Part shown: positions 3,001 through 6,000 of the stretch, in pieces
Layout of the letters: each line of letters opens with the position of its first letter
How positions within the stretch are numbered: position 1 is the first letter of the stretch
Assembly: GCF_024298765.1 (NCBI RefSeq)
Contig: NZ_CP101210.1
Reading direction: 5' to 3' (one strand)
DNA from: Escherichia coli
GTDB lineage: Bacteria; Pseudomonadota; Gammaproteobacteria; Enterobacterales; Enterobacteriaceae
Length of the DNA stretch: 64,000 nt
Program-made: the position numbers

Positions 3001-6000
3001 AGAATTATTGTTTATCTGGTTTTCTAAATGCTGTTGTTGCAACTGAGTTTGCGTTTTCAGTTGCTGATTCAGCATCCCTTTTTGCTGGATTTGCTGCGTT
3101 TGCATTTGGGTTTGCATCCGCTGCTGACTGGGGATCTGATACCCCGGCTGGTTAGGGTTGTTCAGAGTATTAATGGGCTGTGCAAAGCCGACAAACGGCA
3201 GGAGTGCCGTAAGAATCAGAAGTCGTTTCATCGCGTATCCTCCTCTGAAGATATTCTTTAAGTTTACTCCTTTCCTGCAATCATCAGGATTAATTCAGAG
3301 TTATATACCAGGCTTAGCTGGGGTTGCCCCTTAATCTCTGGAGAATAACGATGATAAAACCGACGTTTTTACGCCGGGTGGCCATTGCTGCTCTGTTCAC
3401 AGGAAGTTGTTTTAGTACGGTAGCCGCGCCACCTGCGCCGTCTCCTGTTTCTTACGGCGTGGAGGAAGATGTCTTTCATCCGGTACGCGCGAAACAGGGG
3501 ATGGTGGCGTCTGTAGATGCTACTGCCACTCAGGTGGGGGTGGATATCCTCAAGGAGGGCGGGAATGCCGTTGATGCCGCCGTGGCTGTGGGCTACGCGC
3601 TGGCGGTAACGCATCCGCAGGCAGGGAATCTGGGCGGTGGTGGTTTTATGCTGATCCGCTCGAAAAATGGCAATACCACCGCTATCGATTTCCGCGAAAT
3701 GGCTCCCGCCAAAGCGACCCGCGATATGTTCCTTGATGATCAGGGTAACCCGGACAGCAAAAAATCACTCACTTCGCATCTGGCTTCTGGTACGCCCGGT
3801 ACGGTAGCAGGTTTCTCGCTGGCGTTGGATAAATACGGCACCATGCCGTTAAATAAAGTGGTGCAGCCGGCGTTTAAACTGGCACGCGATGGTTTTATCG
3901 TTAATGACGCGCTGGCTGACGATCTCAAAACCTACGGTAGCGAAGTGTTGCCGAATCACGAAAACAGCAAGGCTATCTTCTGGAAAGAGGGCGCGCCGCT
4001 GAAAAAGGGCGACAAGCTGGTGCAGGCGAACCTGGCAAAGAGCCTGGAGATGATTGCCGAAAATGGCCCGGACGAATTCTACAAAGGCACAATAGCGGAG
4101 CAGATCGCTCAGGAGATGCAGAAAAACGGTGGCTTGATCACTAAAGAAGATTTAGCGGCGTATAAAGCGGTCGAACGTACACCGATTAGCGGCGAATATC
4201 GCGGGTATCAGGTTTACTCGATGCCACCGCCATCTTCCGGTGGGATTCATATCGTGCAGATCCTCAATATCCTGGAAAACTTCGATATGAAGAAATATGG
4301 CTTTGGCAGTGCCGACGCGATGCAAATCATGGCAGAAGCTGAGAAATACGCCTACGCCGACCGCTCGGAATATCTTGGCGATCCGGATTTTGTCAAAGTC
4401 CCGTGGCAGGCGCTGACCAATAAAGCCTATGCCAAATCTATTGCCGATCAAATTGATATCAATAAAGCGAAGCCATCCAGCGAAATTCGCCCCGGCAAGC
4501 TTGCGCCTTATGAGAGTAATCAAACTACCCATTACTCAGTGGTGGATAAAGATGGTAACGCGGTGGCGGTGACCTATACGCTGAACACCACCTTCGGTAC
4601 GGGCATTGTCGCGGGCGAGAGCGGTATTCTGCTTAATAACCAGATGGATGATTTCTCCGCCAAACCGGGCGTACCGAACGTTTACGGGCTGGTGGGCGGT
4701 GATGCCAACGCCGTCGGGCCGAATAAACGCCCGCTGTCGTCGATGTCACCAACCATTGTGGTGAAAGACGGTAAAACCTGGTTAGTGACTGGTAGCCCAG
4801 GCGGTAGCCGGATTATCACCACCGTGCTGCAAATGGTAGTGAACAGCATCGATTATGGCATGAATGTCGCCGAAGCGACCAATGCACCGCGTTTCCACCA
4901 TCAGTGGTTGCCGGACGAGCTGCGCGTCGAGAAAGGATTTAGCCCGGATACGCTCAAGCTGCTGGAAGCAAAAGGTCAGAAAGTAGCGCTGAAAGAGGCG
5001 ATGGGCAGTACACAAAGCATTATGGTTGGGCCGGACGGTGAGCTGTACGGTGCATCCGACCCGCGCTCGGTGGATGATTTAACGGCGGGGTATTAAGGTT
5101 AGCGGCCCTCTTCGTGGGAAGAGGGCTTAAATGACAAACTTATATTGCAAATTCTTTATTTCACCCGCGCCATATAATATGCATCGACATATTCACCATT
5201 ACGAAAAGCGTAATTTTTGCCGGTGCCTTCTATGTGAAAGCCGAATTTTTTATAGACTGCGATTGCCGGGGCGTTATCTGCAAACACCGTCAACTCAATA
5301 CGATCTATCCGTAACCAGTTGTCGCACATTTCAATCAATTCGCGGATCAGGGCGCTGGCGACGCCGCGGTTGTGCCAGCGGGAGTCAACACAGATACCAA
5401 AAGTTGCAACATGACTACGGCGTGGGCCTTGATAAGCCTCAATGAAAAGATGACCCACCACGATGCCATCAATGCTGGCAACCAGTTGTTTAAACCCCTG
5501 GCGATCTTTCAATCTTTCTGGCCACCAGCCTTCTGAAGGATGAGGTAGTTGTAGTGTGTTGCAATACACCTCCGGCTGGGCGTGAATCTGCCTGATGGCC
5601 TCGTAATCCCGTGTTTCTGCGTGGCGTATCACTATCTCACTCATTCCTTTGTCCTCTTTGGGGTAAATGTCCCTTTCAACATCATTGACTTTCAAATGCG
5701 AGTCAAATGCATTTTTTTGCAAAAAGTGTTGGACAAGTGCGAATGAGAATGATTATTATTGTCTCGCGATCAGGAAGACCCTCGCGGAGAACCTGAAAGC
5801 ACGACATTGCTCACATTGCTTCCAGTATTACTTAGCCAGCCGGGTGCTGGCTTTTTTTTTGACCTTTCGTTCTCAATTTATCCTCGGGAAGTGCTTGTGT
5901 TCGTTATGCGCACTCCAGTAGGAACCACGTCCGCTTTGCGCTAAGGTGTAAATAACCACCTTAAAAAGGACGAAATCATGGTCATTAACTGCGCCTTTAT

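Follow-up and report, generated by a model that had tools for sequence, protein, structure and literature searches.

The interval between the convergent genes ggt (gamma-glutamyltransferase) and yhhY (GNAT N-acetyltransferase) of Escherichia coli has been described in its occupied form. In K-12 MG1655, the annotated gene order is yhhX, ryhB, yhhY, yhhZ, yrhA, yrhD, yrhB, ggt, yhhA, ugpQ, and the stop codons of yhhY and ggt lie 3,454 bp apart (b3441-b3447). Here, yrhA is present as two fragments split by the insertion sequence IS1E, which carries insA6/insB6; this insertion inside yrhA is a known feature of K-12 (PMC12428005). An earlier prediction of genomic islands includes the yhhZ-yrhAB cluster (PMC3309015), and YhhZ has been classed as an Hcp1-family HNH protein (PMC5714182). 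Hcp-ET1, an Hcp-HNH effector of Shiga toxin-producing strains, is a DNase delivered by the type VI secretion system (PMC6730261); it is cited here solely for having the same domain architecture. We analysed the same site in a 64,000-nucleotide stretch of E. coli DNA (contig NZ_CP101210.1 of assembly GCF_024298765.1; hereafter the window), where ggt and yhhY lie directly beside each other. We propose, with a probability of about 0.88, that the 59-bp interval between them is the unoccupied, ancestral-order, pre-insertion state of a strain-variable site, and not a deletion scar.

The ggt-yhhY junction of the window and its K-12 counterpart

Both flanking genes are intact, convergent and directly adjacent, with full-length matches to NCBIfam equivalog models (Table 1). 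Model NF007187 matches ggt with 1312 bits over positions 1-581 of 581, and NF007527 matches yhhY with 319.5 bits over positions 1-162 of 162. The models cover residues 10-590 of the open reading frame (ORF) at 3324-5096 and residues 27-188 of the ORF at 5156-5722, which places both genes at the shorter coordinates given in the table. The ggt stop codon ends at 5096 on the plus strand (tblastn self-match, 100%), and the yhhY stop codon occupies 5156-5158 on the minus strand, leaving a stop-to-stop interval of exactly 59 bp. This is the tail-to-tail arrangement that a sequence-only reading of the window had described, and the ORF listing and the NCBIfam models agree on it.

That reading had placed yhhZ, yrhA, IS1 and yrhB at this position in K-12, and had proposed a pairwise alignment with the K-12 interval as its check. 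The MG1655 annotation bears this out and adds yrhD, which had been left out of the list. The alignment, carried out by blastn of the window against the MG1655 yhhY-ggt region, shows that K-12 does not have the same 59-bp junction. Window positions 1-5127 match the ggt side of K-12 at 95.1% identity, including 31 bp past the stop codon that contain a hairpin, and the yhhY-side match, 96.1% identical over positions 5156-10783, begins precisely with the yhhY stop codon. For about 3.42 kb of K-12 sequence, the window has no counterpart. K-12 and the window have the same flanking genes in the same orientation, with flanks that are 95-96% identical, and the same hairpin next to ggt, but K-12 lacks the 28-bp ancestral spacer segment that follows the hairpin in the window. 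The K-12-type island takes the place of exactly this segment, with breakpoints after 5127 and before 5156. Searches of the whole 64-kb window with the island proteins and DNA (tblastn and blastn) gave no matches, and no yhhZ, yrhA, yrhD, yrhB, IS1 or DUF4225 sequence lies in or near the interval.

States of the site across E. coli

The states of the site were counted in 5,426 complete E. coli genomes. A K-12-type yhhZ-yrhA segment is present in 3,829 of them (about 70%), and in 3,766 it is nearly full length. A further 343, essentially the O157:H7 lineage, carry a 1.8-kb insert with a frameshifted DUF4225 gene that is unrelated to the K-12 island. The two genes ggt and yhhY are contiguous in 965-984 genomes (about 18%), and other states account for the ~270 that remain by subtraction. 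In K-12 as well as in the strains with the yhhZ island or the DUF4225 insert, the inserted DNA sits precisely at the site left unoccupied in the window. With at least four states in these genomes, and with the outgroup loci described below, the earlier description of the junction as the unoccupied state of a variable site holds.

The K-12-type island without IS1 measures 2,656 bp and has a G+C content of 33.4%; that of the O157 insert is 31.2% and that of the flanks 51.6%. YhhZ matches the T6SS_HCP domain (E = 1.6e-11) and weakly an HNH domain (E = 0.005, which falls short of the Pfam cutoff), YrhB matches Imm35 (E = 4e-23), and a Pfam search of YrhA and YrhD gave no match. Where the site is filled, it most often contains a predicted type VI secretion toxin-immunity module of the Hcp-HNH kind (Hcp-ET1/YhhZ type), AT-rich and without mobility genes of its own; unlike the genomes that carry one, the window has no trace of such a module. 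Apart from the K-12-specific IS1E, there is no integrase or recombinase among the annotated island genes. No tRNA gene was found near the site in window positions 1-12000, and no target duplications or att-like direct repeats pair the island ends. Lacking a tRNA target, flanking repeats and an integrase, the site was rejected as a classical site of integrase-mediated island insertion.

In Bacillus subtilis, the names yrhA and yrhB belong to mccA and mccB. The listing of the E. coli yhhZ-yrhAB cluster as an island (Gist34) assigns it the 'conversion of methionine to cysteine', citing work on B. subtilis (PMC3309015). This looks like a collision of gene names; here, YhhZ combines Hcp and HNH matches and YrhB matches Imm35.

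Adjacency of ggt and yhhY in outgroups

Scanning the YhhY protein of the window against one genome per GTDB species returned 41 loci. Where an outgroup locus has both genes, ggt is convergent with yhhY and directly beside it, with spacers of 36-122 bp and few exceptions, namely a few genera with spacers of 240-390 bp. Adjacent ggt and yhhY are found in E. albertii, E. whittamii and three further Escherichia lineages, and in Citrobacter, Enterobacter, Klebsiella, Lelliottia and Pluralibacter. As these outgroup loci have the two genes adjacent, the comparison indicates that adjacency is the ancestral order and that the E. coli islands are insertions.

The site takes cargo in another genus too: three genes for a metNIQ-like ABC transporter (ABC_tran+NIL, BPD_transp_1 and NlpA lipoprotein) lie between yhhY and ggt in Franconibacter pulveris DSM 19144. 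One 4-kb contig of a metagenome-assembled genome labelled 'uncultured Flavihumibacter sp.' (CABHOW010000200.1) carries yhhX, yhhY, yhhZ, yrhA and yrhD with 99-100% amino acid identity to K-12, and almost certainly represents E. coli DNA that contaminates a Bacteroidota assembly.

Fine structure of the empty junction

A common form of the spacer, TAA-TATCTTAAGCCCTCTCCCGGTAGGTGAGGGC-TTAAATGACAAAC.TA.ATTGCAAATTCT.TA, is shared by E. albertii, two further Escherichia lineages and the common empty-site E. coli (ST131 and others); the spacers of E. whittamii and of a fifth Escherichia lineage are more diverged. The empty junctions of ST131-type E. coli, E. albertii and other Escherichia resemble that of the window in the adjacency of the genes, a spacer of 58-62 bp, a hairpin after ggt and a nearly identical right-hand 32 bp, but differ from it in the 30 nt of the hairpin (TATCTTAAGCCCTCTCCCGGTAGGTGAGGGC versus GGTTAGCGGCCCTCTTCGTGGGAAGAGGGC). 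Aligned by eye, the right-hand 28-32 bp of the window spacer correspond to the ancestral Escherichia spacer with 2-5 differences. The 28-bp segment has 3 differences from the ST131-type spacer and more closely resembles that of an outgroup Escherichia. The left 30 nt of the window spacer, GGTTAGCGGCCCTCTTCGTGGGAAGAGGGC, do not follow the outgroups and are instead the hairpin variant that adjoins both kinds of island. This derived variant occurs in 4,071 of the 5,426 genomes, against 73 with the complete window-type junction (71 nt searched, identical), and the ancestral hairpin was found in all four of the other empty-site E. coli sampled. The ancestral type of empty junction is present in ~900 genomes. 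By these comparisons, the window junction is a rare mosaic subtype of the empty state.

Many of the 73 genomes with the window junction are poultry or avian pathogenic E. coli isolates, and in at least 30 of the 73 a 3.8-kb region is 100% identical to the window. One strain of this type, GPEC657, has an IS26 beneath the match and an annotation that divides yhhY into two pieces.

We also considered a short similarity between the ancestral spacer and the yhhY-proximal end of the K-12 island. The former has TTAAATGACA 3' of its hairpin and the latter TTGAATGACA, which match at 9 of 10 positions; in the island, TTGAATGACA sits just before a second hairpin, CCCTTTTTC...GAAAAAGGG, that is ~80% like the ggt hairpin. 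A rough estimate puts the number of such 10-mer matches arising by chance in AT-rich sequence at ~0.3-1.4; the match was accordingly regarded as a coincidence and not taken to indicate a duplication.

The stem-loop 3' of ggt

The spacer contains a single strong inverted repeat, GCCCTCTTC / GAAGAGGGC, whose 9-nt arms (5105-5113 and 5118-5126) are 100% complementary and enclose a 4-nt loop; a G.U pair lengthens the stem by one pair (Table 1). Folded as RNA, the stem-loop reaches -22.3 kcal/mol (z = -3.4), and equally good folds were obtained in 1 of 200 shuffled sequences. With its stable, G+C-rich stem of 9-10 bp, it resembles an intrinsic terminator, and it shares with the bidirectional intrinsic terminators found between convergent genes the single G+C-rich stem-loop in a short spacer. 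Unlike these, it has no U-tract 3' of the stem in either direction (the tail is TTAAATGA on the plus strand and CGCTAACC on the minus strand) and is missed by a consensus terminator scan. The stem-loop is not a canonical intrinsic terminator. Of the 'single terminator hairpin' noted in the sequence-only reading, the hairpin stands, as there is one strong fold; the word terminator, without a U-tract on either strand, can only be a supposition.

A stem-loop is present at the same position in every Escherichia spacer examined by extraction and folding, with differing stem sequences, and in one Escherichia lineage the outer stem pair is switched from G-C to C-G. The retention of the stem-loop despite this change in sequence is consistent with a conserved structural role. 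We infer that the element, located just 3' of the ggt stop codon, probably serves to define the 3' end of transcripts or to terminate them. The alternative that it is a repeat element of the repetitive extragenic palindromic (REP) kind, for which further copies would be expected, was rejected: this one copy stands alone in the 64-kb window when up to 3 mismatches are allowed. A scan of the spacer for known RNA families returned sub-threshold noise alone.

Origin of the empty junction

We propose the following history of the site. In the ancestor of Escherichia and related Enterobacteriaceae, ggt and yhhY would have been separated by a short spacer with a stem-loop just past the ggt stop codon. 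Later, within E. coli, AT-rich foreign DNA would have been inserted immediately 3' of the stem-loop. In most strains, this would have been a module of ~2.7 kb comprising a predicted Hcp-HNH type VI toxin (yhhZ), yrhA, yrhD and the Imm35-family yrhB, to which K-12 added IS1E. In the O157:H7 lineage, the 1.8-kb segment with the DUF4225 pseudogene would have been inserted instead. Because no integrase, tRNA or flanking repeats are present, we infer that the insertion was probably illegitimate and that the islands then spread by homologous recombination of the flanks. In this history, the window junction would represent the progenitor-type allele of the haplotype that received the islands. The same hairpin is followed, from the same nucleotide on, by three different sequences (the O157 insert, the K-12 island and the ancestral spacer), which is most simply read as a derived hairpin that was part of the ggt-side backbone before the insertions.

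Several observations weigh against this history. The hairpin variant of the window is otherwise found beside islands alone, and the other sampled empty sites have the ancestral hairpin. The window-type junction is rare (73 genomes), looks clonal and is mostly associated with poultry; such a lineage could have lost its island and regained the spacer by recombination. The suggested part of the stem-loop in termination is not supported by a U-tract.

The first two points lead to an alternative that we regard as unlikely. Here, the window would descend from an island-bearing ancestor with the derived hairpin, in which the island was replaced by DNA from an empty-site strain, so that the site is empty now but not primitively so. 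One crossover would have occurred in or beyond yhhY and the other within a short run of shared bases at the hairpin's 3' end (GAGGGC[T]), by homology-facilitated illegitimate recombination. Such an exchange would account for the mosaic junction, with its island-type left and ancestral right part, and for the link between derived hairpin and islands, as the 4,071 carriers approximately equal the island-bearing genomes plus the 73. Parents for it exist and the region recombines, since the divergent yhhY allele of the window (see below) also occurs in the island strain ETEC4067 and in the ancestral-type empty strains E700025 and MFDS1019527. However, the crossover would have had to fall within ~6-7 bp of homology, far below what RecA-dependent exchange usually needs. 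The 3 differences from the ST131-type spacer and the greater closeness to an outgroup Escherichia suggest an old, independent spacer lineage, and the occurrence of one hairpin with three right-hand contexts is more simply explained if the hairpin predates the insertions.

An in-situ deletion from a K-12-like arrangement, mediated by IS1 or by slippage between the terminal hairpins and leaving a 59-bp scar, is highly improbable. Positions 5128-5155 are absent from island-bearing genomes and so could not have been produced by deletion, and neither an edge of the island nor the end of an IS element nor a piece of yrhB is present in the window. The island does decay through the action of IS1, and K-12 has IS1E within yrhA; but in the known deletion derivative, the O19:H7 strain 730V1, where yrhB and IS1 alone are left between ggt and yhhY, both island edges are kept, unlike in the window. 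The probability that the junction reflects a collapse or misjoin in the assembly of the source genome is negligible: 73 complete genomes, each assembled independently, have the identical 71 nt at the junction, at least 30 of these agree with the window over 3.8 kb, and ~900 more E. coli genomes as well as the outgroups have the same gene adjacency.

Returning to the history with an unoccupied site, it may be asked whether the stem-loop itself attracts insertions. The base 3' of the ggt hairpin would then be a reused breakpoint, a hotspot at which the stem-loop guides repeated, integrase-free insertion or replacement of AT-rich cargo, and the window junction would be a surviving progenitor target. 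We consider this idea quite doubtful.

A divergent yhhY allele and other features of the region

The yhhY gene of the window carries an internal patch that is strongly diverged from every other Escherichia allele examined (Table 1), while its first 31 and last 14 codons are ordinary. The gene is 82-83% identical at the nucleotide and 83-84% at the amino acid level to the K-12, ST131-type, O157 and other Escherichia alleles, which are 90-96% identical to each other; the K-12 gene represents the common allele and is 82.8% identical in nucleotides to that of the window. The synonymous divergence (dS) between the window and K-12 genes is 0.65, with a ratio of nonsynonymous to synonymous divergence (dN/dS) of 0.17, compared to a dS of 0.40 between K-12 and E. 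albertii. Against other Escherichia alleles, dS is 0.65-0.83 and dN/dS about 0.15, a greater divergence than that of the E. albertii allele. In a neighbour-joining tree, the window allele branches outside all sampled Escherichia alleles. Its changes are concentrated in the N-terminal half of the GNAT fold, a region that shapes the acceptor site, and the detoxification of aminoacyl-nucleotide antibiotics has been linked to YhhY.

The divergent allele is present in 161 of the 5,426 E. coli genomes, with a bimodal distribution of identities. It is found on all junction types, that is, with the island (ETEC4067), with the ancestral empty junction (E700025, MFDS1019527) and with the window-type junction, and hence is a polymorphism independent of the island. 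Import of the patch together with the junction was rejected, as the last 14 codons, next to the junction, are ordinary and the patch occurs on every junction type. A search for the donor in 5.8 billion proteins and in the GTDB species representatives returned nothing above 85% amino acid identity outside E. coli.

Between positions 4800 and 6100, the small RNA RyhB is the sole real match to a known RNA family, and its terminator (5834-5852 plus a T-run) is the sole canonical terminator called. At the other end of ggt, the window at 3261-3460, covering the upstream region and the end encoding the signal peptide, has a local peak of divergence, with 10-16 mismatches per 100 bp to K-12 and to ST131-type strains and 0 to O157:H7. 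The ggt product has 581 amino acids in the window, 580 in K-12 and 577 in the ST131-type strain. The gene looks mosaic.

Table 1. Coordinates of the features of the ggt-yhhY region, in positions of the 64,000-nucleotide window.
Feature	Position	Strand	Basis or remark
ggt (gamma-glutamyltransferase), intact, 581 aa; left flank of the variable site	3351-5096	+	NCBIfam equivalog NF007187
ggt-yhhY spacer, read as the unoccupied form of the variable site	5097-5155	no strand	Sequence and alignment to K-12
Stem-loop GGCCCTCTTC-GTGG-GAAGAGGGCT, 9 perfect pairs and a closing G.U	5104-5127	+	Inverted-repeat search, RNA folding
28-bp segment TAAATGACAAACTTATATTGCAAATTCT, without K-12 counterpart	5128-5155	no strand	Unaligned in blastn to K-12
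yhhY (GNAT N-acetyltransferase), intact, 162 aa; right flank of the variable site	5156-5644	-	NCBIfam equivalog NF007527
Internal yhhY patch, codons ~32-148, ~350 bp	5200-5551	-	~17% nucleotide divergence from every other Escherichia allele examined
RyhB small RNA gene, between yhhY and yhhX as in K-12	5795-5859	+	Rfam RF00057, 83 bits

Implications

The polymorphism at ggt-yhhY is a known kind of presence/absence variation, and the state seen in the window is already contained in annotated public genomes at 100% identity. The exact window junction, found in 73 of the 5,426 complete genomes and in many poultry isolates, can be used to mark a lineage. Of greater interest, as a by-product, is the strongly diverged yhhY allele, for which current databases contain no donor.

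Taken together, the empty allele pins the insertion breakpoints to the nucleotide and supports the view that the K-12 yhhZ-yrhA-yrhD-yrhB segment is an acquired, AT-rich module with predicted type VI toxin and immunity functions, while a minority of about 18% of E. coli would retain the ancestral adjacency of ggt and yhhY. From this we predict that strains with the empty site are without the immunity candidates yrhA and yrhB and might be sensitive to toxins of the YhhZ type.

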